Shown: in pieces, positions 35,574-58,512 of the stretch
Layout of the letters: each line of letters opens with the position of its first letter
Position numbering within the stretch: position 1 is the stretch's first letter
IMG/VR virus record: IMGVR_UViG_2706794662_000007
Source of the DNA: a virus
Lineage: Duplodnaviria > Heunggongvirae > Uroviricota > Caudoviricetes
Reading direction: 5' to 3' (one strand)
Length of the DNA: 64,000 nucleotides
The notes under the pieces: model-generated
The model's input: the letters and a program-made list of their open reading frames with translations, nothing else
Databases searched by the model: none
What the model was told of the DNA's origin: nothing
Program-made: the position numbers and the translations under genes

Positions 35574-35593
35574 TGAATGACAAAGGTGTCCAC

Positions 35594-36688: not shown

Positions 36689-37220
36689 TATGCTGTCAGC
36701 GGTGAAATGTATGCTATCAGCGGCTATTTTTCTGAAAAGTATGCTGTGAACGGTTAAAGATATGCTACCAGCGGTATAGTGAGATGAACGTATGCTGTGA
36801 GCGGTAAATCATCTATCACCACTCAATGCTCTGTCATACCTCCCCAGTGGTTACTAACCTCGAAGAGTGCATTCCATATAGGTTTGCGCTCACTAACATT
36901 CTATTGCTATTGCGCTGATTGCTTGTAGTGAAAGGCATTTATTGCCTGCTACTCCCTGATAGAACGTATGCTGTCAGCGGTGTTTTATTGAGGAATTTTT
37001 GTTTGGATATGCTATCAGCGGTAATTAATGGCATATGTCAGACATTCGTATGCTGCCAGCGGTAATTTTGTTCTGGTTATACCCATACCGGTACACATTA
37101 TTCATGCAATGTCTTAAGTATGCTGTCAGCGGTAAAAAATCGAGTAAAGTATGCTGTGAGCGGTGAGATAGACTCTCGATATGCTATCAGCGGTAGTTGA
37201 TTGTGTATGCTGTCAGCGGT
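36689..37220. repeat. downstream iteron arrays: 12 copies of TATGCT(G/A)(T/C)(C/G)AGCGG(T/C) in two clusters (incA-like)
   Basis: copies at 36689, 36710, 36740, 36761, 36791, 36967, 37008, 37049, 37119, 37150, 37180, 37206. Confidence 0.8.
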
Positions 37221-42093: not shown

Positions 42094-43184
42094 TTACTCT
42101 TCTACTGACTCGGTGGGGTTGTCTTTTGCTCTTCGGTCGTCGATTGCCTGCAAAGCCGCAATGATTTCAGCCAGTGGCTTCTCCCGATACATCTCGACGA
42201 TCTGCGATTTGGTGTATTTCTTGTCACCAATTTCAACTCGCCCGCTGGCGTTCTTTGGCAGGTATCCTTCTTCCAGCATGTACTCGACGAGCGATTCGAT
42301 AACGTCGAGGCCACGAGTAGGATCGAAGTAGAATTTCCAGGTGCATTTGCCATACGGTGGTGCAACTTTGTTTTTGATGCATTCTGCGCCTACGTCCTGG
42401 CCGATCTTCTCTTTACCATCCTTCATCACCGATGCACCAAGACGGATACGTACAGAAGCGTAGAACTTCGGTGAATCTCCACCTGGAGACGTAGTAGGGT
42501 CGCCAAACATTACACCGATTTTTGTGCGAACCTGATTCAAGAAGATGATGCAGGCGTTGTATTTGCGTGCCCACAAAGCCAGAGTAGGGAAGTTCGCACT
42601 TGTCGCACGAGCCAGTGCCGTATTGTCGTTCATGTTTAGCTGATCTTTGTCTTTGGCAGTGCCTTCAGCCATCTTTTCGAACTTCTCGGCTTTGGAGTTC
42701 GGAACCATAGACGCAAGTGAGTCAGCCACGATACAGATAGGTGCTGATTCAGGAATAAGCTCTTCATCACGTACCAATTTAAGAATTGTGCCGATCAACT
42801 CTACAGAGTCTTCGAAGGTATCAGGCTGCTTGTATACCCACTGACCGTCATCCTCATCTGCATTCAAACCATTGGCTACAGCCAGGCCAACGTCAAAACT
42901 GTTCTCATGATCGAGGANNNNNNNNNNNNNNNNNNNNNNNNNNNNNNNNNNNNNNNNNNNNNNNNNNNNNNNNNNNNNNNNNNNNNNNNNNNNNNNNNNN
43001 NNNNNNNNNNNNNNNNNNNNNNNNNNNNNNNNNNNNNNNNNNNNNNNNNNNNNNNNNNNNNNNNNNNNNNNNNNNNNNNNNNNNNNNNNNNNNNNNNNNN
43101 NNNNNNNNNNNNNNNNNNNNNNNNNNNNNNNNNNNNNNNNNNNNNNNNNNNNNNNNNNNNNNNNNNNNNNNNNNNTTTTGCCAT
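42094..43184 (-). CDS. RecA-like recombinase (interrupted by N-run 42918-43175)
   Basis: IIFLNQVRTKIGVMFGDPTTSPGG...FYASVRIRL matches the RecA core; ATG at 43184 with AAGGAG SD. Confidence 0.75.
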
Positions 43185-43186
43185 GA

Positions 43187-43459
43187 TCAGGCTCCTTTTG
43201 TTTCGTTGATTCGTTTTAAAGCGGCGGATTCGTCGAATACAATCGCATCGTGGTTAAGGAGTCTGGATACACGAGCGAGGATTTTTACGACCTGCTCGCT
43301 GACTAATCCAAACTCGCGATCTGTCGCTTTCATTCCGGCAGCGCCTAGAATTGACGGCAGTGCGATGACAGCGTACTCACCGTGATAAAAGACAATCTCT
43401 TTTGCCAGTTGGGTAGGGGTGGTTGTAGCGCCATTAATAATCGATTTAAGCATTAGCAA
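43187..43459 (-). CDS. hypothetical protein
   Basis: 90-aa ORF upstream of RecA-like gene. Confidence 0.35.
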   Translation of the reverse strand: MLMLKSIINGATTTPTQLAKEIVFYHGEYAVIALPSILGAAGMKATDREFGLVSEQVVKILARVSRLLNHDAIVFDESAALKRINETKGA

Positions 43460-44448
43460 TACCTTTCGAATGGAAGAACAAACACTTCAAGGTCTTCAAG
43501 GAACGAACGGAAATTCAGCTCGTAGCACAGTTGCTCGAATGCTTTCACGTCACGATTGCCTTTGATTGTTTCGATTTCGGTAGGCGGAAACTTCGTCTCA
43601 ATCAGGTTCATTAGCGTGATGTTTCTCTTGAACGCTTCGAGCATTCGACAGCCTGTTTTCTCGTTGAAGGCATTCTTCGCTAGTTTGTTGAAGGCGGTCT
43701 TATGGCGTCCTTTGTCAACCACGATTGAGCCGTCGTTGATGCCGCGTACCATCGTTGCGACACTTCCCCATTCATGCAGCAGCTCTTTCGCACCGCCAGC
43801 ACCAATGCCACCAACACCGCTAATGTTGTCCGATTTATCGCCTTGTAATGCTTTTGCTTCCAAAAATGCGCGAGGAGTAGCGAATCCTGTCAGCTCCGCA
43901 AATTGCTCAAAATTAACCTGCTTGTTTTTGGCGTCTTCGCGCAGGCTTACCCAGCTTACGTTTTCGCGAACTAACTGAAGCCAGTCGCTATCGCCTGTTA
44001 ACAGATAGATGTGTTCAACAATTGGCTGCGGTGCAATGCTGGCTACCAGCAGCCCGGCCAGATCATCCGCTTCTGCATCTTTTGCAATGAGTTGGGTAAC
44101 TCCAAGCGCGGTCATCATTTTGAGGATGTATGGCTTCTGGATAGCAAAGCCTTCCTTCATCTTTTTCATATCAGGATCGTCGTCGCGATTTGCTTTGTAG
44201 TCCGGGTAAAAGTCGCGACGCTTGTCACTAAATCCATCCCAAAGAATCATAGGTCGGGCATGGAGGATGGAGGCATAACGACGGACGTTCTTAACAAAGC
44301 CGAAAGCAGCCTGTACTTCCATTTCGCCGTTGTGCAATTTGTCAGATTGTTGGTGGTAATAACCCAGGCTATTGCCATCTACGAAGAGATAATTCACCGG
44401 TACATTCCTTCCAAAAAGTAAGGCGTCCGTAGACGCCTTACTGGTCAC
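43453..44448 (-). CDS. 5-prime to 3-prime exonuclease / flap endonuclease
   Basis: DGNSL, AKDAEADDLAG, LLTGDSDWLQL, GDKSDNISGVGGIG motifs of Pol I-type 5-prime nuclease domain. Confidence 0.8.
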   Translation of the reverse strand: MTSKASTDALLFGRNVPVNYLFVDGNSLGYYHQQSDKLHNGEMEVQAAFGFVKNVRRYASILHARPMILWDGFSDKRRDFYPDYKANRDDDPDMKKMKEGFAIQKPYILKMMTALGVTQLIAKDAEADDLAGLLVASIAPQPIVEHIYLLTGDSDWLQLVRENVSWVSLREDAKNKQVNFEQFAELTGFATPRAFLEAKALQGDKSDNISGVGGIGAGGAKELLHEWGSVATMVRGINDGSIVVDKGRHKTAFNKLAKNAFNEKTGCRMLEAFKRNITLMNLIETKFPPTEIETIKGNRDVKAFEQLCYELNFRSFLEDLEVFVLPFERYC

Positions 44449-44457: not shown

Positions 44458-45486
44458 TTACAGAGAGTCCAGCTCTCTCAGTAGGTCATCCAGACCTTCA
44501 TCTTCCGTCGCAGATGCGGCTGCTACAGATGTCGCTGCGACTGCTTCAGACTCTTTGACTGATACGGCAACGGCAGCGGAACTTGCCTCTGGTTTAAATT
44601 CAGTTTCAACGGCACGGAGGATTTCTTCATCAACCAGACTGGTTGGTTCAGAAGCCGGTGTGTGCGCGGTTGCTACAGCCGTCGCTCCTTCTGTATGACC
44701 AGTGACAGAGCCAAATCCAGGTAGTGCCGCAGCCGATGTTTTCGCGGTTGAGGAAATTGCTGGTGCAGATGCTGCGGCAGTTGGTGCAGCGATGCCAATC
44801 AGACGACCCATAGTGCGAACTGTCGACAGAAGACGAGTTTCATCAGCCTGATTTGCGTATGCGATCAGATCATGCTGGGTGTTCCAGAATTTATCTTCGA
44901 TATCGCCTTTGTAGACTTTACGCTTAGGCGAGACGTCATATTTGGTATCGCGACCAGAGCCAGTACGTTTAATCAGGAATGCGTAGCCTTCCTCTTTGCT
45001 CAGTGGATTGCCGATATCATCAGCGATGTCTTCGGTGATTGCTTTGCAGATATCATCGAATACAGTAGACGGCAGCTCGATTAATTGGCATTTCTCAGCA
45101 TCTGCGAAATCCTCACGAGCAGAAAGAATGCCGTTGACCAGGTAGCGAGGAGTGGCACGCATTTGACCGATGCGTTCTTCCATTGCTTTGTTACCCTTGT
45201 GACGAGCGCGACCTTCCATCACCATTTCGCATAGCTGACAAGCGCGACCGTGAGTATGTTGCTCACAAATATAAGCGTTGGTTGCTTCTTTACCTTCCTC
45301 GTTCTGATACTTAACGTAGTGCATACCGAAAGTCTGGAAGAACTTACCGTTTGGGTCGTCTTTATTCGGGAAGATGCGGATATAGTTGACGCCGTCTTTT
45401 AAGCGAGTCAGATCAACGTTGTTGCCACGTTTGGCGGCAATGTCTTCACGAGTTTTGTTAAGCAAATCAAGTAATGTCTTAGACAT
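44458..45486 (-). CDS. single-stranded DNA-binding protein, T4 gp32-like
   Basis: IRIFPNKDDPNG and Zn-site-like YICEQHTHGRACQLC resemble gp32 as recalled; acidic C-terminal tail. Confidence 0.6.
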   Translation of the reverse strand: MSKTLLDLLNKTREDIAAKRGNNVDLTRLKDGVNYIRIFPNKDDPNGKFFQTFGMHYVKYQNEEGKEATNAYICEQHTHGRACQLCEMVMEGRARHKGNKAMEERIGQMRATPRYLVNGILSAREDFADAEKCQLIELPSTVFDDICKAITEDIADDIGNPLSKEEGYAFLIKRTGSGRDTKYDVSPKRKVYKGDIEDKFWNTQHDLIAYANQADETRLLSTVRTMGRLIGIAAPTAAASAPAISSTAKTSAAALPGFGSVTGHTEGATAVATAHTPASEPTSLVDEEILRAVETEFKPEASSAAVAVSVKESEAVAATSVAAASATEDEGLDDLLRELDSL

Positions 45487-45603: not shown

Positions 45604-46035
45604 TCAACGGGGAGTAATAAAGCGTTCAGAGCCTAATCGCTCTAATTCAACGATGGCCATCTTTGACGCCTGAACGATCATGTCTCGGCGATGCGAAAAG
45701 GCGGCGACAGCATGTTTGTATATGTCTGCTATGTGCCGTGCGTCATCCAACTTCTGACGTTTAGATAGATACTGTGGGTTCGTTTTAACCTTAGCGTCCA
45801 GTACAGACTCGTTGAACTTAATGCCGTTCATACTCAAGTTCTTACGCTCTGTGTCGTATAGCTTTGCTTCAACAGCTTCAAGGTTAAGTTTTGCCTCTGC
45901 GACACTTCTTTCTGCATGAGCGAGTTTTGAGCCATACTCCATTAAAAGGCGGGGTTGTCTACGCCAGACTTCCTCCAGATTGTCTCGGTCAAACTCGAGA
46001 TCAGACATTATTTTCTCGTAAATATCGGTGATCAT
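45604..46035 (-). CDS. hypothetical protein (possible recombination mediator)
   Basis: 143-aa ORF between SSB and polymerase; weak resemblance to UvsY-like proteins. Confidence 0.3.
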   Translation of the reverse strand: MITDIYEKIMSDLEFDRDNLEEVWRRQPRLLMEYGSKLAHAERSVAEAKLNLEAVEAKLYDTERKNLSMNGIKFNESVLDAKVKTNPQYLSKRQKLDDARHIADIYKHAVAAFSHRRDMIVQASKMAIVELERLGSERFITPR

Positions 46036-46160: not shown

Positions 46161-49100
46161 TCACGACTTAATAGTTTCTGCTACGTCGGCTAATATCGCT
46201 TCTAGTCGTTCTCCCTCTTCAGGTCTGAAGTAAAGAATGTTGGGGTTAAACCCGTAAAAGACTGTAACGTCAAGGTCTGGAAGATACTCCTTCCTACCGA
46301 CTAAATCGGATGGCTTGTTTTTGTTGTTAAACAATGCCGTTGCCCGACTGCCACACGTCAGCACATAGGTCGGACGTACCAGATTGATCTCTTCACGCAT
46401 AAAGTCGGTGAACTGGCCGATCTCGTCTTTGGTGTAGTCCTTTTCTTTGTCTTTCACCTTTTTGCAAACGCCTGTGACATAGAGATCGCCCATGCGCAAA
46501 TCTCCAGCCGTCAACAGCTTGGCCTTAAAATCGTCGTATCCGTTCTCCATGAAGTAACCGGTTCGAGCATCATTGCCGTTTGCATTGTCCAGAATGATCA
46601 TGATTTTCGGCTTAATACCAATGCTGGGGCGGATTAGTTCATCACCTAAGCCCATTTCAGCCGCCATCCGCGTCATAAGTACGTTAATTTCAGCCGAACG
46701 TTTGGAGTTCATCTCAAACGGACGTGAGGCTTTAACTGCGTCTATGACAAGATTTCCCATCAATTCCGCTTGGTCGCGGAGACGTTCTGGATCAGTTGCT
46801 GGCAGACTGCCTGGCTCGATGGATGCAAACGCCCCTACTTTTTGCAGTGATTCGCGCACTCGACTATTACAGGCACGTTTCTCGACAGCTTCTTCGAATT
46901 GCGCCAGTGACTCGAATTTGCCGCCAACTTTTTCTCGCGCTCTCATGATGGCCTGGCAGCCATTCTCAGAACAACCTTTCACAGCAGAGAAGGGCGCATA
47001 CAGCACCTGGCTGCCATCTTCAAGCGTGCGGATCTCAATTCGGTTAGATGACACGTTAACGTCTGGTGGCAATACGCGAATACCATAGGTCAGCGCATCT
47101 TTAACCAGCCCCTGGTGTTTATCTTCGCCAAGAATAGTGAGAGCAGCAGCGAAAAACTCTGCGGGATAATGAGTTTTCAACCACATAGATTGATAACTGA
47201 TTAAGGAGTAAGCAACAGAGTGTGATTTGTTGAACTGGTAGGCACCATTCTTTTCGAATGCGGTCCAGATCTCCTTCGCTTTCATCTCTGATAGCCCTGG
47301 ATGTGACGCTGTAACGCGTACTGCGTTTATAGGTAGTTTTGCGCCGTACTCAAGTGCCTCTTCGACAGTTTTCATAGTTCCGTCTTCGCATTTAAAATGT
47401 TCCGCACGGTGAATGCGCTGTGTAGTGCCATCTTCCAGCTCAACGTCTATCCAGCCAGCTTGAGCCTGAACGATGAACTTCTCGCCCATGCTCTTCATTT
47501 TTTCCATGTCTTTTTTGCCTATCGCTTTACGAACGCCGTCAGCTTCAGCCATTGTGAAGCCAGCAAGCAATCGAGTCGCGTTCATCGTCTGTTCCTGATA
47601 GAGAATCACGCCATTTGTTTCTGCGGTAAGTTCATCAAGAACGGGGTGTAATGATTCCGGCGTCATAAAGCCTTTGGCGACAGAAACATAATCATCCAAC
47701 ATGCCTGACTGAATTGGTCCCGGCCGGAAGAGCGCAGTCGTGGCGACAACGGTTTTAAAGCTCATTGGCTCAATGCCACCGCCCAGATCTTTAAGCAGCT
47801 TGCGCATTGGGCCTGATTCAAGCTGGAAAACACCTTGAGTGTACCCAGCAGCAAAACCATCCAGCACCTTGCGATCTTCAAGAGAAATGGTATCAAGATT
47901 GATATCTTCACCTGTGTTCTCTTTAATGTAGCGTTTTGCACTATCGAGCAAATCGAGAGTTGCCAGGCCAAGCACGTCCAGCTTAATTAGGCCCATAGCC
48001 TCGCAGTAACGCTTGTCAAATGCGATACAACGCGCGTCACCACGGCGCTCAACCGGTGTACGTTCTGTCAGAGGAACACCTGCTACGATCATCCCTGCCG
48101 CATGTCTACCAAAGCCACGCATAAGGCTTTGTAACTTGCAGGCTGCATTGAATGCATCAGGATATTTTGTTGCGTATTTGTCGAGACTTGCCAGTTGTTC
48201 GCGCAGCTCTTCCAATGGAAGGCTATCATCCTCGACGTTCTTCAGTTCTTTTGATACCGCCATATCTGCGGACTCCACACCATAAATACGAGCGGTATCA
48301 CGTAGTGCAGAGGCTGCGCCCAGGTAGGTGAAGTTCGGAATGCCTGCAACGTAATCTTCGCCGTAGCGTTCATTCAGATACTCGATCACTTCATGGCGAC
48401 GTGCCTGGCTGAAGTCCAAATCCGCATCCGGCAAGTCGAGACGCTCAGGGTTGATGAAACGTTCAAACAGAAGACCGTGACGGATTGGGTCGACGTTGGT
48501 TATGCCTATGCACCATGCCACCAGAGATCCAGCGGAGGAACCACGACCAGGCCCGACAGGAATGCCAGTTTCACGACTATGATTCATCAGATCGCGCACC
48601 ATCAGGAAGTAACCACAGAATCCCAGGCGAGTCAGCGTGTCCATTTCGTACTTTAGCCGCTCAACATAAACCCTGTTCTCAGAAGCAGGTGGTGTGTATC
48701 CAAACTCTTTTGTGGTAAGACGTTTACGCAGCCCTGCAACAGCCAGTTTCATCAGCGTTGCAGGTTCGTCGTCTGCCATCTTGGGCAGTGCTGGTGGCAA
48801 TTCATGCCAGCGCCATGTGCAGGCATCGATAATGGTATCCTGCGTTGTTGAGGCCATTGCAGCTGTTACCGGCACATCCATGCGAACGGAGAAGGCTTTA
48901 AGCGCCTCAAGGAGATGGCGGCGACCATTGACGGCGTTATCTCGCTGGTGGGGGATACGCAGACGATGCGGCTGGTCGATTTTTATGTTGTTCGTAACCA
49001 TGTGCGCAATGTCTTTAATGTCTGCATCGTCGATCGATTCGTAATAAGCGGGATAGAACGCCACTGGCTCTATTTTCAATGCGCTGGCGACTTTCATCGC

Positions 49101-49679
49101 CCGGACGTTAATCTGGTCGTAGAATGGGGTAGGGTGCGGATAAACCACACTATAGAAGTTGTCTTTTCCACCCGGTGTAATCAGTGTGCTTATGATTTTT
49201 GCAAAATCGTTGCGTTGGAACACGCTACCGATGTCGGAAGTGAGCAGGATGATGTTGCCTTTGGCATATGTAGAAACCAACTGTTCGAGCGAGAGACGCG
49301 GTACAAAGTAGAACTGTTCTCGTGTGTTGGCCACCGTCATTAGTTCGCAGATGTCGCGATATCCTTGCTCATTTTTAATTAGAGCGGTAAACGAGTAGTT
49401 ACGTCCTCGCTCTAATGATTCCATACATCCCTTAGATTCTTTAGCAAGTTTATCCCGGTGCTCGTATGTGGGATCATCAACGATGTTTAGTTTCACACCA
49501 CAAATAACCGCCATGTCGTCACCAGCGGCACGTTGTAGTGGAATAACACTCGCAATATTCATGCTATCTGCTGAAATTACAGCGGTGTAGCCAGCTTCTC
49601 TGGCAATCTTCACCGCGTTTTCTGCTTTTAGAGCCGACTCCCCAAGTGAGAAGTCAGTTCGAACCATCAGTGCCTTCAT
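46161..49679 (-). CDS. dnaE: DNA polymerase III alpha-like (DnaE-family) replicative polymerase
   Basis: 1172 aa; N-terminal PHP domain; GFCGYFLMVRDLMNHSRETGIPVGPGRGSSAGSLVAWCIGITNVDPIRHGLLFERFINPER matches the DnaE palm region. Confidence 0.9.
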   Translation of the reverse strand: MKALMVRTDFSLGESALKAENAVKIAREAGYTAVISADSMNIASVIPLQRAAGDDMAVICGVKLNIVDDPTYEHRDKLAKESKGCMESLERGRNYSFTALIKNEQGYRDICELMTVANTREQFYFVPRLSLEQLVSTYAKGNIILLTSDIGSVFQRNDFAKIISTLITPGGKDNFYSVVYPHPTPFYDQINVRAMKVASALKIEPVAFYPAYYESIDDADIKDIAHMVTNNIKIDQPHRLRIPHQRDNAVNGRRHLLEALKAFSVRMDVPVTAAMASTTQDTIIDACTWRWHELPPALPKMADDEPATLMKLAVAGLRKRLTTKEFGYTPPASENRVYVERLKYEMDTLTRLGFCGYFLMVRDLMNHSRETGIPVGPGRGSSAGSLVAWCIGITNVDPIRHGLLFERFINPERLDLPDADLDFSQARRHEVIEYLNERYGEDYVAGIPNFTYLGAASALRDTARIYGVESADMAVSKELKNVEDDSLPLEELREQLASLDKYATKYPDAFNAACKLQSLMRGFGRHAAGMIVAGVPLTERTPVERRGDARCIAFDKRYCEAMGLIKLDVLGLATLDLLDSAKRYIKENTGEDINLDTISLEDRKVLDGFAAGYTQGVFQLESGPMRKLLKDLGGGIEPMSFKTVVATTALFRPGPIQSGMLDDYVSVAKGFMTPESLHPVLDELTAETNGVILYQEQTMNATRLLAGFTMAEADGVRKAIGKKDMEKMKSMGEKFIVQAQAGWIDVELEDGTTQRIHRAEHFKCEDGTMKTVEEALEYGAKLPINAVRVTASHPGLSEMKAKEIWTAFEKNGAYQFNKSHSVAYSLISYQSMWLKTHYPAEFFAAALTILGEDKHQGLVKDALTYGIRVLPPDVNVSSNRIEIRTLEDGSQVLYAPFSAVKGCSENGCQAIMRAREKVGGKFESLAQFEEAVEKRACNSRVRESLQKVGAFASIEPGSLPATDPERLRDQAELMGNLVIDAVKASRPFEMNSKRSAEINVLMTRMAAEMGLGDELIRPSIGIKPKIMIILDNANGNDARTGYFMENGYDDFKAKLLTAGDLRMGDLYVTGVCKKVKDKEKDYTKDEIGQFTDFMREEINLVRPTYVLTCGSRATALFNNKNKPSDLVGRKEYLPDLDVTVFYGFNPNILYFRPEEGERLEAILADVAETIKS

Positions 49680-49863
49680 GTGTTTTTACCTTTCTGGTTT
49701 TTTTGATTTTGTCATTTGGGAAGCCTACGAACTTCCCATGCATCGAAATCGCAACTTCTTTTGCTGATTGGTGACAATAAGGCTTGTCTGGACACTCCAG
49801 ACAAGCCTTACCAGTTTCAGAAGCAGCGATAAGAGAGCCGAAACATCCTTTACGCACGATCAA
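49654..49863 (-). CDS. hypothetical small Cys-rich protein
   Basis: 69-aa ORF overlapping the polymerase start. Confidence 0.25.
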   Translation of the reverse strand: MIVRKGCFGSLIAASETGKACLECPDKPYCHQSAKEVAISMHGKFVGFPNDKIKKTRKVKTHEGTDGSN

Positions 49864-51095
49864 CCAAATATTTTTTGAACAACTTCACGAGCCGCTTGTG
49901 CAGAAGCTGAAGGGAGTTTGTTAATGAAAGAACGCTCAATACCTGTCACAAAATCGCCTCGCATCATTCCAATCTTGGCCGACAACAAAAGCTCACGAGG
50001 CCCAATCGGTTGGCTGATATTGTGTTCTTCGTATCCATCGCGAACGATACCGGCAAACTTAACCATCTTTTCAGCGTATTCATCCACGATGCCTGCATTT
50101 GTCAACATGTTGATCTCTGCGTCTTTGCTCATGTATTTCACATTCGAAACGATGCCAAAACGCGAAAAGTTCGCGGCGTTCTGGATGTTTGTACCCTGGT
50201 ACAAGCCGGTTTCATCACCAGATCCGTTCGTGTTGCCAGTGCCAATGAAAGCAAACCGTTCATGCGGAGTAATGCGACGCCATTCTGGAGTTGCCTCTTT
50301 GATGACCAACGCTTCACCTTCCAGCACTGGCTGATACACGCCAAGAATTTGTGGAAACGCAAAGTCGTATTCATCCGCGAGGTAAACCCAGCCATGCTTC
50401 ATTGCGAGCGCAAGCAAGCCAGGTTCGAAATACGTAGAGCCATCACGCGCCAGAATTTGCCCCGTAACATGTGCCTCTTCCATTGATGCTGTATGTTGGG
50501 CACGGATCAACGGACGATTGAGCAAAGCACATAGCTGTGTAGGCAATGACGATTTGCCTGTTCCTGCATGACCCCACAAATAGCCAGGTATGCCAAGTTC
50601 AAGCATCATGAAAATATCTTTGATCAGTTCGAAGTCGCCATATACGTAGCCTTTCTTCACTTCGGGAACGAACTCTGGATACGGCGTATTGACGTTGACG
50701 CTAACCATGAGCGGCGTCCCACGTTTTGTTCCGAGTTCTTCCACCGTTACGTTTAGCAGTTCGTGAGCTGCGACCAGATCTGTCTTGTACTCAACTGTGC
50801 CTGTGTAGCCAGGGCTACTGGTCAAGCCAGAAGATTTGGCCATTTCGCTTTTTTGCTCGGCACGTTTAGCTTGAATTGCATCAAGTGCCTTTTTCGATAG
50901 CGTTGGCTCATCTGGAAACTGTGTTGTGTACATTTTCAGTACGGTGTCAGGATCGGCATCTTTTACTGACTCAGGAATGCCCTCGCAATTACCATTGGCT
51001 ACATGGGACTTAAAATAGTGAAATGATTTTCCGCACCACTTGCAAACAAGGTAATCAGAAGGATTTTTTTCATTTTGCAGTGCAGTAGTAGTCAT
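49860..51095 (-). CDS. cobS: CobS-like (MoxR-type) AAA+ ATPase
   Basis: Walker A GHAGTGKS, Walker B-like YLADEYD; N-terminal Zn-ribbon-like CKWCGK. Confidence 0.65.
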   Translation of the reverse strand: MTTTALQNEKNPSDYLVCKWCGKSFHYFKSHVANGNCEGIPESVKDADPDTVLKMYTTQFPDEPTLSKKALDAIQAKRAEQKSEMAKSSGLTSSPGYTGTVEYKTDLVAAHELLNVTVEELGTKRGTPLMVSVNVNTPYPEFVPEVKKGYVYGDFELIKDIFMMLELGIPGYLWGHAGTGKSSLPTQLCALLNRPLIRAQHTASMEEAHVTGQILARDGSTYFEPGLLALAMKHGWVYLADEYDFAFPQILGVYQPVLEGEALVIKEATPEWRRITPHERFAFIGTGNTNGSGDETGLYQGTNIQNAANFSRFGIVSNVKYMSKDAEINMLTNAGIVDEYAEKMVKFAGIVRDGYEEHNISQPIGPRELLLSAKIGMMRGDFVTGIERSFINKLPSASAQAAREVVQKIFG

Positions 51096-51190: not shown

Positions 51191-53299
51191 TCACTTCAAA
51201 ATGATACGAGATAGTTCAGTAACTACAGATGAACCAAGACTATCAACGCTCGTTACCAGGGCATGATTTGAGTAAAATCTCTCCGGTGCGTCAGTCATGA
51301 TGCCAATTGCCATCAAATCAATGTCAGTCTGCGTTTCAATTTGCTTCGCAACCGAACGCAAATGAGCGTCAAAACCTCTCCCAACAGCCCACGGCGCGCC
51401 ATCACTCAGAACAAGCATGATCTTCCTGTCCTCCATGCGACCGGAAAATAACGATGCAAGGCTGGCTATGCTTTCACCATCCACGTTATTAAGAAGTGGG
51501 AATGTGTAGCCTACGCACCCCATACGTGAGCGAACTTCGCGAGAACTTACCTTTTCATTCCAATTTTTGATGATAGGTAGCATTAAAGATTCAAAGCGAG
51601 AGAACTCATACTTGACAGCCTTAAGTTCTCCTGCCGCCATATGACTACCAAATGTAGTGAAGCCGGTGATAATGTTGGGAACATTTATTCGATCAAGGGC
51701 ATCGGCGATGGTATATGAACTTGCAAGAGCCAATTGTATCGTTATACCACTCATTGAACCTGATAAATCAATCACTTGTTGAACACAGGCGTTAACGGCT
51801 TTAGATTCTTCTTTTTTACGAAACACGCGATCATCATTCATTGCTAATCTGTAGATACTAGAACCATGAATGCGCCCCCGACGCTGGCCCGGTATAAACT
51901 GAACTCTGTTTCTGCTTGCTATTGCTCGCTCCAGGTCTTTTGCCAGCGTCGACGAAACACCTGACGAAAGATGCTTTTCAATATATTTGTCGAAGAGCTG
52001 GTTGCCTTCAGGAACGATGCGATAGCGGCTGATTGGATATCCTCCTAAATCAATATCGGAGAATGTTTTAATAAGCCGTTTGATATGGGCTTCTGCCTGA
52101 TCAATCGAGCCGATGAAGTCGTATGAGCGATTGTATGGCCTGTATTCGCTTTTCGAGCTTTCTGTTAACTCGCTTTTAATCGTTTCGGATAGAGCATCTT
52201 CTGTCATGCCTCCGACTTCATCTTCTATGCTATCCAGCTCCTCTAAAGCCTCTTCCAGACTCATTTTTGACGGAGTTGGAATATCTGAAGAGCCGTCTTC
52301 TGTCGTTTTTCTTTTTTCGTGGTCAGCGGTTAATGATTCTGACGCCGCGTTATCAGAAGCATCAGAATCTGATACCTCTTTATCATTTTCTGTATCATCG
52401 AATATTGTTTCTGATGATTCAGAATTATCTGAATCATCACTGTCGTTATTATCATGTTTGTGCTTACTGTGTGATTCTGATTCGATAGATTTGTGATTAT
52501 CTAACGCTGAGGGTGTCTCATGATCTTCGTTGTCTTCATTGTTTTCTCCAGAGGCATCCGTCTGGTCAGCGTCTGAAGGATCGGAAGTTTTTCCCGGAGC
52601 TGACTCCTTACCTTTGCTTTCACTTTCAGTGTCTTTGAGGATCTTAGCTATGGTCGCAGCCACCTTTACACAATCCTCGGTGCAAGACATGTTACGCACG
52701 GCCACATCGATACCATGTTCTTTTAATAATGAAATTGGTTTCTCAATGACAGGCCAGTATTCATCCATGAAATCTACGAACGGTGCTTGGCCATCCCAGG
52801 CTCTTACAACCGGACAGAGAAAGAAGTTTAGAAAAAGCGCGCGCTGATCTTTGCCACAATAAGCAATAGCCTCTGAAGCCTTTGGTTTAAAGACTTTTTC
52901 GATTATAAGGCGCTGAGTTGCCATCAGATTACGTCTCGTTCCGTTAAAGACCTGCCCCATTTTTCGCTCGATGAACACGTCTTCTAATGCATTCCATAGT
53001 GACCGGGAAGGAACGCGTCCTTTTTCTCTCATTTTGTTGGAGACACGAATATCGGTAAACAAAATGTGAGCAACCTCATGATCGAGAAATCCGCGCACAG
53101 CATTCATCAATGCCGGTGTTGCGTTATCCGGAATTGATGGGATGTTTACGAGAATTGGCTCTCCATCATCGTTATAGCGTACATAAGCGTCGTCTCCTCG
53201 TTCTGCAACAGGGATGTTTTTACCTGAAAGGAGAGCGACTACTCGTTTTACACTGTCACGGAAGTCCTGAACCTCTTTGATGGAACGTTTTTTAGACAT
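51191..53299 (-). CDS. cobT: CobT-like von Willebrand factor A domain protein
   Basis: 702 aa; MIDAS motif DLSGSMSG; long acidic D/S/E-rich linker; adjacent to AAA+ partner. Confidence 0.6.
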   Translation of the reverse strand: MSKKRSIKEVQDFRDSVKRVVALLSGKNIPVAERGDDAYVRYNDDGEPILVNIPSIPDNATPALMNAVRGFLDHEVAHILFTDIRVSNKMREKGRVPSRSLWNALEDVFIERKMGQVFNGTRRNLMATQRLIIEKVFKPKASEAIAYCGKDQRALFLNFFLCPVVRAWDGQAPFVDFMDEYWPVIEKPISLLKEHGIDVAVRNMSCTEDCVKVAATIAKILKDTESESKGKESAPGKTSDPSDADQTDASGENNEDNEDHETPSALDNHKSIESESHSKHKHDNNDSDDSDNSESSETIFDDTENDKEVSDSDASDNAASESLTADHEKRKTTEDGSSDIPTPSKMSLEEALEELDSIEDEVGGMTEDALSETIKSELTESSKSEYRPYNRSYDFIGSIDQAEAHIKRLIKTFSDIDLGGYPISRYRIVPEGNQLFDKYIEKHLSSGVSSTLAKDLERAIASRNRVQFIPGQRRGRIHGSSIYRLAMNDDRVFRKKEESKAVNACVQQVIDLSGSMSGITIQLALASSYTIADALDRINVPNIITGFTTFGSHMAAGELKAVKYEFSRFESLMLPIIKNWNEKVSSREVRSRMGCVGYTFPLLNNVDGESIASLASLFSGRMEDRKIMLVLSDGAPWAVGRGFDAHLRSVAKQIETQTDIDLMAIGIMTDAPERFYSNHALVTSVDSLGSSVVTELSRIILK

Positions 53300-53857: not shown

Positions 53858-54244
53858 ATGTCTGACAAAAACATTGAATTTATAGAAAGTCGCTATGCTG
53901 CTTTTATCGCAGGGCTGATTGAATCCTCACCTATGAGTCAGGCCCAAATAGCCAGACTTATTGGTTATAAAAATGCCAACAACCTTTCTTTAATTAAAAG
54001 TGGTAAAATTCCTTTGCCTATCGATAAGGTTCGTCCGCTGGCGTTGGCGCTGGGTATTGAGCCAAGTCGTCTTATGATGATGGTGCTGGAAGAACGCCAA
54101 CCTGAACTCGCAGCATTTTTATACAAAGAAGGTACCGCTCCTCTTAACGAGGACGAAAAACAGGTTCTTGCTGCATATAACGAGCGATTCGGTAAAGAGA
54201 AAGGCGCATCACAAAAGGTTGTTGAGGCCATAAAGTCTCTATGA
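53858..54244 (+). CDS. XRE-family helix-turn-helix transcriptional regulator
   Basis: MSQAQIARLIGYKNANNLSLIKSGKIPLP resembles HTH_XRE; only clear plus-strand gene in this region. Confidence 0.6.
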   Translation: MSDKNIEFIESRYAAFIAGLIESSPMSQAQIARLIGYKNANNLSLIKSGKIPLPIDKVRPLALALGIEPSRLMMMVLEERQPELAAFLYKEGTAPLNEDEKQVLAAYNERFGKEKGASQKVVEAIKSL

Positions 54245-55342
54245 AAAATTTAGACGAATAAGCTCTGTTGATAGACGATCTCCCTTGAATTTGTGGTCAA
54301 TTTCGTCTAAATCCGGTTGCTCTACGATTGATGCGATGTACGTTGAGAAACTTTCTAAGGCGTCTCGCATCTCGTCCATATAATCGTGCCGGTCGTAGAC
54401 CCGATCTATCCCCTCAAGACTGTGGTTCATTATTTTGCGTGATACCTCCTGGCTTATGCCTAATGCTGGGAAGTAACTACGCGCAGTACGGCGCAAATCT
54501 CGGGGTGTAAATGGCGCAAGCTCCATCAGTTCTGGTCGTTCCAGAATACGACGTAATGCCTGGGCTATTGCCACTTTAGACATAGGAAGGTCTTTCCCGA
54601 TTTTTTTATTCGAAGGCACGAGCCACTGGCTGTCTTTACCGTATTCGAACAACTCTTCAATGCATGTGCGCATTAATGTGCTTAAAGGTAGCGAATGCTC
54701 ACGTGCTGACTTGTTTCTCTTGCCTTGATTCCAAACTCCACGCTTAAGATTGAACTCACTTTTTTTAGCCCTCAGTACTTCGTCAGGTCGTCTTGCTGAT
54801 ACAAGACATAGCCTGGCCGCCCATTTTGTACCAGCGCACACATTGAAGTAGTCCCATATATTCCAGAACACCCATACCTCTGCGTCGGTCAGCTTCCGCT
54901 CGCGAGGTGTGGGCTTTGCGCCACCGGCAACTTTGTTTAGTGACATATCGTTTAACGGTGACACGTCTATCATCCCCTGGAAGGCGCACCAGCTAAGGAA
55001 CTGCTTCATCAGAGAGAAAACGCGGCGGCCCATAACAATTTTGCCATCCAATATTAGAGGGTTGACCAGTTGGTTAACCATGAACCTATTAATGTCACTT
55101 ACTTTTACATCAGCAATGTGCGGCAAAACATGTATCAAAATACAATGAACAGCGATCTCTGGCCGACGTCTGGTTATCAGCAGAGATAAGCGAGTGAATA
55201 ACATGAATGCGTCCGAGAATATCATGTTATTGTTGATCTGTGAGATCATAATGGCCTGCATTTGAGATGCTCTTTCGAGATACTCAATTGCCTCTTTTGA
55301 GGTGTTTTCTGCTGCGCGTGCTCTGTCAAAGCTATTTTTCAT
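54239..55342 (-). CDS. tyrosine recombinase (integrase or dimer-resolution recombinase)
   Basis: C-terminal RDLRRTARSY...MNHS...RVYDRHDY consistent with R-H-R-Y catalytic arrangement; box-I-like SARRPDEV. Confidence 0.6.
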   Translation of the reverse strand: MKNSFDRARAAENTSKEAIEYLERASQMQAIMISQINNNMIFSDAFMLFTRLSLLITRRRPEIAVHCILIHVLPHIADVKVSDINRFMVNQLVNPLILDGKIVMGRRVFSLMKQFLSWCAFQGMIDVSPLNDMSLNKVAGGAKPTPRERKLTDAEVWVFWNIWDYFNVCAGTKWAARLCLVSARRPDEVLRAKKSEFNLKRGVWNQGKRNKSAREHSLPLSTLMRTCIEELFEYGKDSQWLVPSNKKIGKDLPMSKVAIAQALRRILERPELMELAPFTPRDLRRTARSYFPALGISQEVSRKIMNHSLEGIDRVYDRHDYMDEMRDALESFSTYIASIVEQPDLDEIDHKFKGDRLSTELIRLNFS

Positions 55343-55549: not shown

Positions 55550-57463
55550 TTAGGTTGGGTTGTTGATGCTAATGGTAAGTGTTTCGATAGCAAGATCATG
55601 AGTTTGGTTGTTTGTTATATCTGTTAAAACAAAAGCCTCATCACCAAGAGCAATATTGTCTTTAACCAGCTTGAATTTACTCCCCGCCTTGCCATCGAGA
55701 ACGGGAATTACAGTTCCTGTGCCTTTCTCATATTGCAACTCAAGAGTGTGCCAATTGTTGTCGTAGTCACCATATGAGTCTATCTGAACATTTCGATTAT
55801 TGCCTGTCCTGTGCATCATAATGTTCAACTTGCCTCCAATTGTTTGAAGGAAGAAGTTAGCCAGAAACAGGCTCCCAGTACCGTCGAATGATATATCGTC
55901 AGCAACAGGTTTACTGGTTTTGTAATATATACCAAAGCCAAACTTAGCTTTTTTTGGATCAGGGTTTCCAGATAATTTAAACTTACAAAGTAATTTACCT
56001 CCATTCTCAAGAAGAGCCTGTGCTATGTCAGTAGCTTTACTGATCGTCCAAGTTTCGTTGGAAACCGCTTTAGTTAAAGCAATTGCTTTTCCGTTTTCAA
56101 CTGACTGAATATTTGCACCAGTTACAGTCCATCCTTGTTCAGTAGCGACATCACCACCAGCTCCAGTTAAGGAAATAACCGTTCGCGGGGTTGGAGTTGT
56201 GACAATGTTGTCATTTTTAGGTTGAGTAGGTTGTTCTTGTTTAATAATCTCACCTGTAACGCCATTCACAAAAGCAGATGATTTCGCTGAATGTGCAAGC
56301 AGCGCAGTTGCGAGACGATCAGATATTATTCCGCGTCGCTGCCATGAACCAAAATGACTCTCTCTACTCTCGGAAGTCCATGTTTTATTATCCTTGCGAT
56401 GACCGGAACCATAATAGCCAATAGATGTGATGTCTGGATCATCTGTAGGGCTATTGGTTAATACGTTATTATCATTCTCATCTTTCATGAATGGAACGAA
56501 ATAAATTGCTTGTGAGGTTTTTCCCTTATAACCACCATAAACAATTTCGTACTGTTTTGGATATTTGTTTTTCCACCAGTGGGTCGTATCGCCACAAATC
56601 CAGGGTACATTTGCAGCACTTCCGAAAACACATTGTGCGTCGTATTGAGATAGCTCTTTTCTGAAACCTTCGACCATCTTGAGGAACAGTTCGTTATGCT
56701 GCGAGTACTTGCCAGTTGCCAAATCAGCTTCGCCTTGCATCCAGACAACACCAAGAAATACATTCTTTTTGTTTTTACTTAAGGCCGCTTTTGTTCTGGC
56801 TACAATATCCTTATACAAAGGAGTATTTAATCCCCATTTTAAAGATGATTCGATTGCACCTGACTCTTCATAATATTGGCCTTCAGAGCCTGTAACAGTG
56901 AAACCAGAACCACCTCTTCCGCAAGGAACGAGCAAAATACCTGCGTTTGCTGGAATGAATGGTAATAGTTTTTTGCCAATGTGTAGTCCCTGACCAACAC
57001 ATCCATATTCAGAGTCGTTTGCTTTTGGATGCTTGAATTTAGTCATGTCTTGTACATCATGAAGACAGTGATCAGCGGGAATTATTTCATTGTACTTACA
57101 GGCAAAACCACCTGGTTTAATATTGCTGCGTCGAGCTAACTGTTTTACGCGAGGATGTGGCCGATCAAAAGTTTTTGGCATAGGCAGTCCTTCGCCGTAT
57201 GACATTGAGTTGGATTGACCTGCGATAGTAACTACATAATAATAGTCAGGCTCTTCATCTTCATTTGATACCGGTGTGGGCAATTGTGATAAATCACCAG
57301 ATCGCACAATTGCTTGATTGTACGCATTTGGTCCGCCCTTACTTGGTTCAACAATGTTTGGTGACTCGAAAGGTTGCCAACCCTCTGCGATTTTCTCCGC
57401 AAGTTTTTCTCTAAGCTCTTTGCTTGATGATGCTGACAAAATATCATAGTCAATGAATGACAT
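55550..57463 (-). CDS. NanS-p-like sialate O-acetylesterase (DUF1737 N-terminus, SGNH esterase, C-terminal beta-rich domain)
   Basis: YYYVVTIAGQSNSMSYGEG (GQSN block); N-terminus MSFIDYDILSASSSKELREKL resembles prophage NanS-p family as recalled. Confidence 0.6.
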   Translation of the reverse strand: MSFIDYDILSASSSKELREKLAEKIAEGWQPFESPNIVEPSKGGPNAYNQAIVRSGDLSQLPTPVSNEDEEPDYYYVVTIAGQSNSMSYGEGLPMPKTFDRPHPRVKQLARRSNIKPGGFACKYNEIIPADHCLHDVQDMTKFKHPKANDSEYGCVGQGLHIGKKLLPFIPANAGILLVPCGRGGSGFTVTGSEGQYYEESGAIESSLKWGLNTPLYKDIVARTKAALSKNKKNVFLGVVWMQGEADLATGKYSQHNELFLKMVEGFRKELSQYDAQCVFGSAANVPWICGDTTHWWKNKYPKQYEIVYGGYKGKTSQAIYFVPFMKDENDNNVLTNSPTDDPDITSIGYYGSGHRKDNKTWTSESRESHFGSWQRRGIISDRLATALLAHSAKSSAFVNGVTGEIIKQEQPTQPKNDNIVTTPTPRTVISLTGAGGDVATEQGWTVTGANIQSVENGKAIALTKAVSNETWTISKATDIAQALLENGGKLLCKFKLSGNPDPKKAKFGFGIYYKTSKPVADDISFDGTGSLFLANFFLQTIGGKLNIMMHRTGNNRNVQIDSYGDYDNNWHTLELQYEKGTGTVIPVLDGKAGSKFKLVKDNIALGDEAFVLTDITNNQTHDLAIETLTISINNPT

Positions 57464-57688: not shown

Positions 57689-57775
57689 TGGCGGAGAGTA
57701 ATGGAATCGAACCATCATCGCTTGCGCAATGGGACGGTTTTCAAGACCGCTTGAGCACCATGCTCCCTACTCTCC
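57689..57775 (-). tRNA. tRNA-Ser (anticodon UGA), type II with long variable arm
   Basis: 7-bp acceptor stem GGAGAGT/ACTCTCC, anticodon loop CTTGAAA, T-loop TTCGATT, encoded CCA; short D-loop. Confidence 0.65.
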
Positions 57776-57939
57776 AGTCGTTGTGGTTACCGGTACTGAT
57801 CTCCGGCTTAGCGACCCCGGCTACTGACTGCATTGCAGTGTGTGAACTCGCCTCGTGTGTCGCTGGGGCATTTCTTTCCGCGCATCAGTCTGCGCATCAA
57901 CCACAACGGAAAGAGCATTCACGTCTCGCGTGCCACCAC

Positions 57940-58035
57940 GAATGGCAACTCAGAGAGTCGAACTCTGAAAATGTTCTTACCTGTTGTGCGCTCCGTTTCG
58001 TGGAGCTAACGGCGGGTGAACAGGCCGCACCAGGT
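57940..58035 (-). pseudogene. tRNA-like remnant (T-arm intact, no pairing acceptor stem)
   Basis: perfect T-arm CAGAG-TTCGACT-CTCTG but no complementary acceptor stem found. Confidence 0.3.
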
Positions 58036-58265
58036 TGGACATATTTCAGCGTTATGCTGTTGCAAGAGAGCCAAATTGTGATGGTCGGCGCTGATCTCCG
58101 ACACAGGGTTGTAGCAAGCCCCGCAAAGCGCGCACTACTGTAGTTGCGGCACATCAGCCTGTGCATTCACCACAATGTTGAGAACACTGGTTGTCACGCG
58201 GCAACGCAACATTTATTCATAGATTGGGATATGACCCCGTTACGCCAATGTTCTCAATATTATGT

Positions 58266-58341
58266 TGGTGCCGATTAACGGGATCGAACCGATGACCATT
58301 CGCTTACAAAGCGACTGCTCTACCAACTGAGCTAAATCGGC
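58266..58341 (-). tRNA. tRNA-Thr (anticodon UGU)
   Basis: acceptor GCCGATT/AATCGGC, D-arm TAGCTCAGTTGGTAGAGCA, anticodon loop TTTGTAA, T-loop TTCGATC, encoded CCA. Confidence 0.8.
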
Positions 58342-58345
58342 AATT

Positions 58346-58432
58346 TGGTGGGGAGTGATAGAGTCGAACCACCCGAGTCGCAATGACAGTAGATTTACAG
58401 TCTACCCCGCTACCTCTACGGACTAACTCCCC
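58346..58432 (-). tRNA. tRNA-Tyr (anticodon GUA), type II
   Basis: acceptor GGGGAGT/ACTCCCC, anticodon arm GTAGA-CTGTAAA-TCTAC, long variable arm, encoded CCA. Confidence 0.8.
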
Positions 58433-58437
58433 TAAAT

Positions 58438-58512
58438 TGGCGATGGTGGGTGGATTCGAACCACCGACCAATTGGTTAACAGCCAACTGCTCTACCGCTG
58501 AGCTACACCATC
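58438..58512 (-). tRNA. tRNA-Asn (anticodon GUU)
   Basis: perfect 7-bp acceptor GATGGTG/CACCATC, anticodon loop CTGTTAA, T-arm GGTGG-TTCGAAT-CCACC, encoded CCA; differs from E. coli tRNA-Asn as recalled. Confidence 0.85.

Follow-up and report, generated by a model that had tools for sequence, protein, structure and literature searches.

A DnaE-type (C-family) DNA polymerase encoded by an SSU5-type phage-plasmid carries at its C-terminus a domain with the predicted fold of a uracil-DNA glycosylase (UDG), where bacterial DnaE has an OB fold and a tau-binding C-terminal domain (CTD). Its gene lies on the minus strand of a 64,000-nucleotide stretch of viral DNA (Caudoviricetes; IMG/VR virus record IMGVR_UViG_2706794662_000007), which was analysed as a whole and is called the window here, and a separate DnaQ-like exonuclease is encoded on the same strand. 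The pair is real, and the polymerase is an already known gene of a very common family. The gene content is best explained, with good confidence, by two replication systems on one element, namely a plasmid mode driven by RepA and a phage replisome built around the DnaE-type polymerase, with the exonuclease working in trans and the sliding clamp borrowed from the host. The polymerase, its parts and the exonuclease are arranged as follows (aa, amino acids).

46161-49679, minus strand: DnaE-type (C-family) DNA polymerase catalytic subunit, 1172 aa (uninterrupted open reading frame, Pfam, TIGR00594, phrog_405)
48780-49679, minus strand: PHP domain with a degenerate metal-binding site, aa 1-300 (alignment of ligand columns)
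47460-48779, minus strand: polymerase core of palm, thumb and fingers with D418, D420 and D568, aa 301-740 (alignments to Taq and E. coli alpha)
47301-47459, minus strand: lineage-specific insert of about 50 aa in the fingers, aa 741-793 (gap in E. coli and Taq)
46800-47300, minus strand: end of the fingers and (HhH)2 beta-binding domain, aa 794-960 (HHH_6 at aa 866-955; end of the E. coli alignment at aa 956)
46758-46772, minus strand: QAELM, candidate beta-clamp-binding pentapeptide directly after (HhH)2, aa 970-974 (position and conservation in the clade)
46164-46619, minus strand: predicted UDG-fold domain replacing the OB fold and the tau-binding CTD, aa 1021-1172 (TIGR00758, PF03167, AlphaFold2 and Foldseek)
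21378-21935, minus strand: stand-alone DEDDh (DnaQ/epsilon-like) 3'-5' exonuclease, 185 aa (RNase_T, phrog_192)

Four Pfam families match the polymerase, all above their gathering scores: PHP (PF02811, aa 6-154, E 1e-12), DNA_pol3_alpha (PF07733, aa 309-571, E 1e-73), DNA_pol3_finger (PF17657, aa 574-740, E 1e-44), and HHH_6 (PF14579, aa 866-955, E 2e-16). It passes the superfamily model TIGR00594 (632 bits vs. a cut-off of 434), stays below the cut-off of the DnaE1 equivalog NF004226 (678 bits vs. 1002), and is spanned at full length by phrog_405 of the PHROGs collection. The catalytic aspartates of the palm, D418 and D420 in DADLD and D568 in KLDVLGL, coincide in alignments with their counterparts in Taq and E. 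coli alpha, and the triad is invariant in an alignment of 116 sequences. Judged by these matches, the protein is a C-family DnaE-type polymerase with the domain order PHP, palm/thumb/fingers and (HhH)2 and with the three aspartates kept. Homology to E. coli DnaE covers aa 4-956 at 30% identity and is absent beyond aa 956. A first-pass annotation of the window had recorded a full-length PHP-domain DnaE polymerase and a separate DnaQ-like exonuclease. Both genes are confirmed, the former by the 1172-aa reading frame, Pfam and the aspartate triad and the latter by PF00929 and its DEDDh residues, but "full-length" does not hold: the enzyme is not a canonical DnaE1, lacking the OB fold and the tau-binding CTD, carrying the UDG-like domain instead, and having lost its PHP ligands. 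That annotation was otherwise largely right, and the UDG-like tail is what it missed.

The gene is intact and selected. In comparison with the homolog of Salmonella phage SSU5, dN/dS is 0.039 overall, 0.071 in the PHP domain, 0.049 in the insert and 0.042 in the UDG-like domain, and it ranges from 0.02 to 0.07 across every measurable polymerase domain, which rules out a pseudogene or a decaying gene and shows strong purifying selection on all domains of a C-family catalytic subunit. The insert of about 50 aa is predicted to form a small beta subdomain (AlphaFold2 strands at 743-793, pLDDT about 78-87) and is missing from the DnaE of Pseudomonas phage nickie. As a separate observation, in CP101896.1 (494-4746) the dnaE gene is cut at about aa 787 into two reading frames by a gene for a 233-aa HNH/NUMOD4 homing endonuclease, and this site coincides exactly with the insert; the split is found in many Klebsiella and some E. 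coli phage-plasmids, and also in P0255 (787 aa, 1105 member sequences) and the E. coli record NZ_CP080257.1. Some other copies of dnaE carry an IS100 insertion.

The C-terminal domain is only weakly recognizable in sequence as a family-4 UDG (TIGR00758, E 2.6e-7 and 30.5 bits vs. a cut-off of 125; PF03167, E 0.0018), and a search for homologous proteins with this domain alone returned six fragments and nothing else. The AlphaFold2 model of aa 950-1172 has a pLDDT of 81.9, and its top Foldseek matches in the PDB are family-4 UDG and UdgX structures (1L9G, 1UI0, 4ZBX, and 8IIQ) with E of about 2e-10, a probability of 1.00 and TM-scores of 0.6-0.77. According to this model, a UDG fold stands where bacterial DnaE has the OB fold and the tau-binding CTD; a full-length model, which reached a pTM of 0.49 with low confidence near the palm, was not used for domain placement or docking. 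The DnaE-UDG architecture itself has been known since 2014: Timinskas et al. (2014; NAR 42:1393, PMC3919608) describe a "DnaEX" variant whose OB fold and CTD have given way to a UDG domain of archaeal type (PF03167), and report this UDG-bearing DnaEX as a further polymerase in certain Yersinia pestis and Salmonella enterica strains.

The hallmarks of family-4 UDGs do not recur in this domain. The family is characterized by motif A GE[AG]PG, motif B HPS, an asparagine that recognizes uracil, and four cysteines of a [4Fe-4S] cluster. In the polymerase, motif A reads LDNAN (1030-1034), motif B reads NPN (1145-1147) with its catalytic histidine changed to asparagine, a glycine occupies the position of the uracil-recognizing asparagine, and the four cluster cysteines are absent, the two cysteines present being non-conserved. 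Because the canonical catalytic residues are replaced, the domain does not look like an efficient glycosylase; by analogy it is most likely a module for binding the template strand as single-stranded DNA or for sensing uracil. The analogy comes from A-family phage polymerases with a fused UDG, which binds to the 5' template strand and reads out uracil in front of the fork, from N4-like PolA, which keeps a fused UDG domain whose catalytic residues are lost, and from D4 of the Mpox replicase, which is placed similarly to the PolA-fused UDG (bioRxiv 10.1101/2025.03.26.645540). An active enzyme that excises template uracil ahead of the fork, as in SP15-like PolA-UDG fusions, would be consistent with the clear family-4/UdgX fold, with an acidic residue at the motif-A position (D1031; most clade members have D-x-P here), with a 5'-3' exonuclease/FEN and a ligase on the element that could process abasic sites, and with the A-family precedent (bioRxiv 10.1101/2025.03.26.645540). 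It is nonetheless unlikely, since it has to accommodate all the substitutions listed above and the score of 30 bits against TIGR00758, and N4-like PolA exemplifies a polymerase-fused UDG that persists after catalysis is lost.

At the other end of the polymerase, the PHP domain is degenerate. Six ligand columns were checked out of nine conserved metal-binding residues, and they read H-H-D-D-H-E in most bacterial representatives and M-R-E-D-S-K in this polymerase; the N-terminus has LMVRTDFS where HxHxH is expected, and SADS stands in place of TDH. With its metal ligands lost, the PHP domain therefore offers no route for proofreading. A candidate for this activity is the 185-aa exonuclease, which matches RNase_T (PF00929; E 2.5e-21, 77 bits vs. 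a cut-off of 24) and phrog_192, "DNA polymerase exonuclease subunit" (E 6e-51), and aligns to residues 11-176 of E. coli epsilon with 29% identity. Its DEDDh residues D9, E11, D99, H155, and D160 correspond to D12, E14, D103, H162, and D167 of E. coli epsilon. It consists of the epsilon catalytic domain only (185 aa vs. 243), without the tail of about 55 aa that binds the PHP domain of alpha in E. coli, and it scores below the cut-offs of the epsilon models (NF004316, 72 bits vs. 196; TIGR00573, 53 vs. 71.5).

The exonuclease and the UDG-bearing polymerase travel together. In a tblastn search of the phage collection (E <= 1e-8), the exonuclease was found in 38 records, 31 of them carrying a DnaE-UDG polymerase; conversely, 31 of the 32 DnaE-UDG phage records have it, at 39-100% identity, and the sole exception is a 13-kb fragment. 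Searches of IMG/VR with the exonuclease, as a single sequence and then as an alignment, gave SSU5-group loci only. The SSU5 exonuclease is 84% identical to that of the element, and in phage nickie a dnaQ gene whose 188-aa product is 40% identical holds an equivalent place in the gene order, downstream of thyA, DHFR and kinase genes. Because the two genes co-occur nearly perfectly across distant phages, the exonuclease would proofread for the polymerase in trans. Its C-terminus, KYGFFKLP, is conserved. In E. coli epsilon the clamp-binding hexapeptide is QTSMAF; the offset in the BLAST alignment puts residues 175-180 of the exonuclease (YGFFKL) at the place of this motif, and the hypothesis suggested by this position is that the tail-less exonuclease is tethered via the clamp through YGFFKL.

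The polymerase has a comparable candidate peptide. In C-family polymerases the clamp-binding pentapeptide QL[SD]LF lies directly after (HhH)2, with positions 1, 4, and 5 as the key ones (Timinskas et al., 2014; PMC3919608). QAELM at this site has Q at position 1, L at position 4 and M at position 5, the motif across the clade is [KR]DQxEL[ML]PG, and Q970 and M974 are invariant within the SSU5 group. This conservation suggests that QAELM most likely docks the polymerase on the host beta clamp. The first-pass annotation had proposed a search for clamp and clamp-loader genes outside the window, and none came to light: none is annotated in the complete 109-kb record NZ_CP053753.1, which contains the element, and PHROGs and Pfam revealed none among the roughly 35 hypothetical proteins of this complete plasmid. 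Likewise, phmmer with E. coli DnaN and DnaX and with T4 gp45, gp44 and gp62 found nothing within 10 kb of any UDG-type DnaE in a scan of 80 viral loci, or in phage nickie, and in the same scan DnaX-like genes do adjoin other phage DnaE types. Since the polymerase lacks a tau-binding CTD and neither clamp nor loader is detectable, its incorporation into a holoenzyme of the host type by way of tau is not expected.

Two proteins were considered as clamp candidates for their size and position, a 269-aa protein by the exonuclease and a 258-aa protein by the primase, and were rejected, their sequences not being clamp-like by eye: the former looks acidic and disordered, and the latter is mostly helical. 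The 269-aa protein (20408-21217, phrog_5235) has an extremely acidic and probably disordered N-terminal half, and its homolog in nickie is also encoded near dnaQ.

Among 1.84 billion representative proteins, 32,553 relatives of the polymerase were found, the nearest at 65% identity; the nearest relatives are followed by a broad set of about 35-41% identity and 1080-1140 aa, and the same C-terminal domain occurs in about 60 of the best 150. A neighbour-joining tree built from 570 core columns separates the UDG-bearing proteins from the group holding E. coli DnaE. A UDG-bearing subclade with degenerate PHP, 44 taxa including the query, has a bootstrap of 169/200, and a second UDG-bearing group, in which HHDDHE is retained, has 195/200; E. 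coli DnaE falls outside the PHP-degenerate clade in every replicate. A single clade of all UDG-bearing polymerases was recovered in only 22/100 bootstrap replicates, for which a few basal taxa are responsible. The UDG-type C-terminus occurs in 32 phage records, which comprise the SSU5 group, Pseudomonas phage nickie and its relatives, the Rhizobium RHEph10 group, Stenotrophomonas BUCTxx99 and ANB28, and Xanthomonas JGB6, and the clade is phage-borne wherever the source can be checked. DnaE in general is a minority feature of phages and not a rarity: 1213 of 50,697 phage records have a homolog, and in IMG/VR relatives are encoded on at least 598 contigs; of the best 80, about 32 match at full length, often on contigs of 95-118 kb. 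The first-pass annotation's description of such polymerases as unusual in phages was thus overstated.

These data bear on the idea that the gene is host-derived cargo, a chromosomal dnaE lately captured by a plasmid and without a dedicated role in replication of the element. The RefSeq label, "dnaE, DNA polymerase III subunit alpha", and the bacterial domain order up to (HhH)2 might be read in this way. However, identity to E. coli DnaE is 30% and ends at aa 956, and the score of 678 bits is below the DnaE1 equivalog cut-off of 1002; in the collections of phages and viral contigs, the members of its clade are borne by phages and stand apart from the E. coli group; the gene order is shared with Pseudomonas, Rhizobium and Stenotrophomonas phages; and no chromosomal copy was found among 5426 complete E. 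coli genomes, of which 244 (about 4.5%) have the gene, in 250 copies that are all on plasmids. Placement inside a host chromosomal clade with chromosomal synteny was the outcome that the first-pass annotation had named as contrary to its view, and the phage clade outside the E. coli DnaE group is the opposite of it. As far as sequence evidence goes, capture from a host chromosome is already refuted and extremely improbable.

It might also be supposed that the enzyme serves error-prone synthesis or repair, as a DnaE2-like polymerase or a helper in translesion synthesis, and is not the replicase of the element. Like all DnaE2 it has no CTD and like most DnaE2 no active PHP site (Timinskas et al., 2014; PMC3919608), and it is an "additional" polymerase in cells already holding DnaE1. 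Yet it scores 399 bits with the error-prone model NF004225 (cut-off 939) against 678 with the replicative DnaE model, and its candidate clamp motif starts with Q, unlike the proline-rich clamp motifs described for DnaE2 in that article. No imuA/imuB-type partners are found in the annotation, the gene belongs to one co-oriented block with those for helicase, primase, single-stranded DNA-binding protein (SSB), FEN, and ligase, and its phyletic coupling to a proofreading exonuclease is the opposite of a mutator design. This alternative is very unlikely.

The element that carries these genes is well represented in sequence collections. The dnaE region is 100% identical to that of four Shigella sonnei plasmids of about 107-109 kb, e.g., NZ_CP053753.1 and LR213459.1, and 84.8% identical to that of SSU5. 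NZ_CP053753.1 is circular and 109,437 bp long; its annotation includes terminase, portal, capsid, tape measure, and tail fibre genes together with two ParB-domain genes and a RepB-family initiator. SSU5-type elements are defined here as extrachromosomal replicons of about 100-115 kb, similar to SSU5 at the nucleotide level, on which the structural module of a tailed phage is combined with genes for plasmid replication and partition. By its gene content and similarity the element is a typical SSU5-type phage-plasmid of Shigella/E. coli, in which structural genes and plasmid replication and partition genes share one replicon. Of this tailed-phage genome, which is kept as a low-copy plasmid, the window represents the early and replication region. 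In PLSDB, 688 plasmids have the dnaE of the element (Escherichia, Klebsiella, Enterobacter, Yersinia, Salmonella, and others), 63 being Yersinia plasmids and 49 Salmonella plasmids. The finding thus identifies anew the replication module of an Enterobacterales phage-plasmid family that is common and already sequenced and that includes SSU5-like elements carrying antimicrobial resistance. The plasmid origin is represented by two features, and its coexistence with the phage genes, claimed in the first-pass annotation, is borne out.

35474-36688, plus strand: Rep3/RepB-family plasmid initiator RepA (PF01051; annotated as RepB family initiator)
35468-35573 and 36684-37220 (span 35468-37220): 15 iterons with the consensus GTATGCTGTCAGCGGT, in two blocks flanking repA (repeat search)

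The upstream iteron block overlaps the predicted start of the 404-aa RepA reading frame, and the Rep3 domain begins only at aa 158; therefore, the true start codon may be further downstream.

The genes around dnaE and elsewhere in the window supply most of the other activities of a replisome, and the primase, ligase, gp32-like SSB, and RNase H named in the first-pass annotation are all present by Pfam or annotation.

51191-53299, minus strand: CobT-like protein with a von Willebrand factor A domain, partner of the CobS-like protein (PF11775, E 3e-81; PF06213)
49860-51095, minus strand: CobS-like AAA+ (MoxR-type) ATPase, directly upstream of dnaE (PF07728; TIGR01650 far under its cut-off)
45604-46035, minus strand: 143-aa protein directly downstream of dnaE (phrog_2058; phrog_231, UvsY-like, E 2.6e-4)
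44458-45486, minus strand: gp32-like SSB (PF08804, E 1.7e-66; phrog_1192)
43453-44448, minus strand: 5'-3' exonuclease/FEN for primer removal (PF02739 and PF01367)
42111-43184, minus strand: RecA/UvsX-like recombinase, broken by a run of N at 42918-43175 (intact copy in NZ_CP053753.1, PF00154, E 2e-42; phrog_97, UvsX-like)
59920-61242, minus strand: ATP-dependent DNA ligase (PF01068; annotated as DNA ligase)
62615-63868, minus strand: DnaG-like primase (DNAG_N and Toprim_2, both weak; annotated as DNA primase)
18039-18716, minus strand: RNase HI (annotated coding sequence 18039-18632; PF00075, E 1e-44; annotated as rnhA)

According to the annotation, a gene for a DnaB-like helicase adjoins the primase gene just past the end of the window, and the element also encodes SbcCD and a RuvC-like resolvase. 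The order around dnaE is conserved: in UDG-type DnaE loci (n = 32 viral), genes for the CobT-like protein, the CobS-like protein, DnaE, the 143-aa protein, gp32, FEN, and the RecA/UvsX-like recombinase follow one another on the same strand, and in nickie the synteny runs from DnaB helicase to thymidylate synthase. Given the RecA/UvsX-like recombinase, SbcCD and the RuvC-like resolvase, a T4-like mode of replication that depends on recombination is plausible.

Of the 32 UDG-type loci, 30 (three of them closely related SSU5-group loci) have the CobS-like gene upstream of dnaE, as against 0 of 48 other DnaE loci. The CobT/CobS pair also sits directly upstream of DnaE, on the same strand, in phage nickie. 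These proteins are usually annotated as "porphyrin/cobalamin biosynthesis", and their linkage to DnaE suggests a role in replication. It might even be imagined that the polymerase works free of any clamp, being tethered or loaded by its UDG-like domain or by the upstream CobS-like/CobT-like pair, in a manner resembling the poxvirus UDG D4 of the processivity factor. This would fit the absence of clamp and loader genes from the element and from the 10 kb around UDG-type DnaE in the 32 viral loci, the biased position of the CobT-CobS pair, and the strong purifying selection on a UDG-like domain that has lost the canonical catalytic residues; moreover, the UDG fused to phage PolA binds the template strand at the same place as Mpox D4 (bioRxiv 10.1101/2025.03.26.645540). 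What such a polymerase leaves unexplained is a Q-x-x-L-[ML] peptide kept exactly at the C-family clamp-motif site. CobS/CobT homologs are, besides, widespread in phages that have no DnaE, where they are usually labelled auxiliary metabolic genes (phrog_249), and gene adjacency alone is no proof of a replisome role. A clamp-free polymerase is accordingly quite unlikely.

The 143-aa reading frame follows DnaE directly in about 28 viral loci, with a gap that is often 4-60 nt in relatives, and in other phages the protein corresponds to the C-terminal domain of proteins of up to about 430 aa (426 aa in nickie). Its similarity to T4 UvsY by hhalign is weak (E 0.053, probability 1%), and a profile search of the PDB with it gave no match. 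The protein is weakly UvsY-like and could instead be an accessory subunit of the polymerase.

The explanation preferred here, with two replication systems on one element, would work as follows. RepA and the iterons would form a plasmid origin, which, in analogy to other iteron plasmids, would bring in the replisome of the host while the element is carried, and a phage-encoded replisome would drive vegetative growth. The latter would comprise the DnaB-like helicase, the DnaG-like primase, the DnaE-type polymerase, the gp32-like SSB, and the ATP-dependent ligase, with FEN and RNase HI for primer removal, and would be completed by the RecA/UvsX-type recombinase with SbcCD and RuvC and by enzymes of dNTP supply. 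The polymerase would dock on the host beta clamp via QAELM without a tie to the host clamp loader through tau, and the 185-aa DEDDh exonuclease, held in the complex by its conserved C-terminal YGFFKL, would proofread in trans. The UDG-like domain may bind or scan the template strand, for which PolA-UDG fusions and Mpox D4 are the precedents.

Several points weigh against this scheme. First, the division into a plasmid mode and a lytic mode is deduced from gene content, and a literature search (SSU5 with DnaE or polymerase) found no functional, biochemical or genetic study of the polymerase, the exonuclease or their interaction. Second, the exonuclease gene lies 24 kb from dnaE and its product has no tail of the kind that binds PHP in E. 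coli, so that a physical complex of the two proteins is no more than a possibility. Third, QAELM ends in M where F is usual, and AlphaFold2 puts it within a helix, with moderate confidence. Fourth, the absence of a clamp rests on sequence methods, and about 25 hypothetical proteins of the element remain without assignment. Fifth, residual glycosylase activity of the UDG-like domain may be conceivable given D1031, the acidic residue kept at the motif-A position.

The closest known systems are SSU5 and its kin. The DnaE of SSU5 (SSU5_052) likewise has 1172 aa, with 93.9% amino-acid identity, and is surrounded as in the element by genes for CobT, CobS, a small reading frame, the 143-aa protein, gp32, FEN, and the RecA-like protein; SSU5-like phage-plasmids such as that of E. 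coli phage Cyrano show no substantive difference. Plasmids pHCM2 of S. Typhi and pMT1 of Y. pestis are presumably SSU5-like phage-plasmids as well. At a greater distance, the phages of about 105-122 kb nickie (Nickievirus), the RHEph10 group, BUCTxx99, ANB28, and JGB6 share the full-length architecture at about 36-38% identity, together with the degenerate PHP, the sequence RDQKELLPG and a separate dnaQ gene whose product has about 188 aa. The genome of nickie, the one among these examined gene by gene, has the gene order of the element from helicase to thymidylate synthase and a DnaE about 37% identical; it differs in that its DnaE has 1130 aa without the 50-aa insert and the product encoded downstream has 426 aa instead of 143. 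The DnaEX-UDG of Timinskas et al. (2014; PMC3919608) has the same architecture as the polymerase of the element; in the available part of that article it is not connected with phages or phage-plasmids, a trans-acting exonuclease, a degenerate PHP or a clamp motif, and these links are made in the present analysis.

The E. coli Pol III core shares with the element PHP, palm/thumb/fingers, and (HhH)2 followed by a Q-initiated motif, a degenerate PHP, and a separate DEDDh exonuclease. It differs at the level of sequence (alpha 30% and epsilon 29% identity) and in possessing the OB fold, the tau-binding CTD and the epsilon tail, which the element lacks. The element encodes no recognizable theta, tau/gamma, delta, delta' or beta, and its polymerase has in addition the UDG-like domain and the 50-aa beta insert. 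SPO1-, SP15- and N4-like PolA-UDG and poxvirus PolB E9 with UDG D4 likewise couple a replicative polymerase to a UDG-fold module, and in N4-like PolA the UDG's catalytic residues are lost, seemingly as in the element. In the solved PolA-UDG structures the UDG sits on the 5' template strand (bioRxiv 10.1101/2025.03.26.645540). The polymerase of the element belongs to family C and not to A or B, and its UDG is C-terminal, replacing the OB fold, whereas that of PolA is N-terminal.

A C-family replicase can thus do without an OB fold, PHP activity and a domain for binding tau, a UDG fold having been taken up instead, and the phage-plasmid offers a natural system for how the polymerase and proofreader of a mobile element plug into the sliding clamp of a host. 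There is possibly also some relevance to copy-number switching of phage-plasmids and to orthogonal replication tools. A broader proposal is that DnaE-UDG, tail-less DnaQ and CobS/CobT make up a distinct type of C-family replisome in phages and phage-plasmids of about 100-120 kb, in which the altered UDG would act as a template reader, the two peptides QAELM and YGFFKL would assemble the enzymes on the host clamp without an epsilon-PHP contact, and CobS/CobT would be replication accessories. This proposal is tentative and, on balance, doubtful; if it is true, the altered UDG fold replacing the OB fold would be a third, independent coupling of polymerase and UDG, after the PolA fusions and poxvirus PolB-D4.

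Some further observations concern other parts of the element. Chimeric reading frames that join the N-terminal part of an element-type DnaE to a RecA (PF00154) domain occur in some assemblies (P0252, P0258, and P0272), and they probably come from deletions fusing dnaE to the nearby UvsX-like gene. A tyrosine integrase is encoded on this extrachromosomal element (54239-55342), where it is possibly a dimer resolvase. Beside it, between the replication genes and a tRNA cluster, lies the gene for a 637-aa protein (55550-57463) with DUF1737, SASA sialate-O-acetylesterase and DUF6645 domains. The tRNA cluster occupies a stretch poor in reading frames (57689-58512, minus strand) and consists of Ser-TGA, Thr-TGT, Tyr-GTA, and Asn-GTT.

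The window is 99.995-100% identical to NZ_CP053753.1 save for one IS2 copy and seven masked runs of N. The IS2 copy of that plasmid, pMHMC-002 (102202-103430 in NZ_CP053753.1), is missing from the window at 10421-10428; therefore, the window stems from a sister plasmid, for instance LR213459.1 (108.1 kb) or NZ_CP045933.1. The runs of N, at 4263-4591, 6780-7032, 9353-9602, 13174-13428, 32187-32449, 42918-43175, and 61635-61884, are each about 250-330 nt long and stand for real sequence present in NZ_CP053753.1. One run aligned base by base measures 258 nt and replaces 241 nt, and the other runs also differ in length from the corresponding gaps of the record. Several reading frames are disrupted by these runs, including those of the RecA/UvsX-like and SbcC-like proteins.

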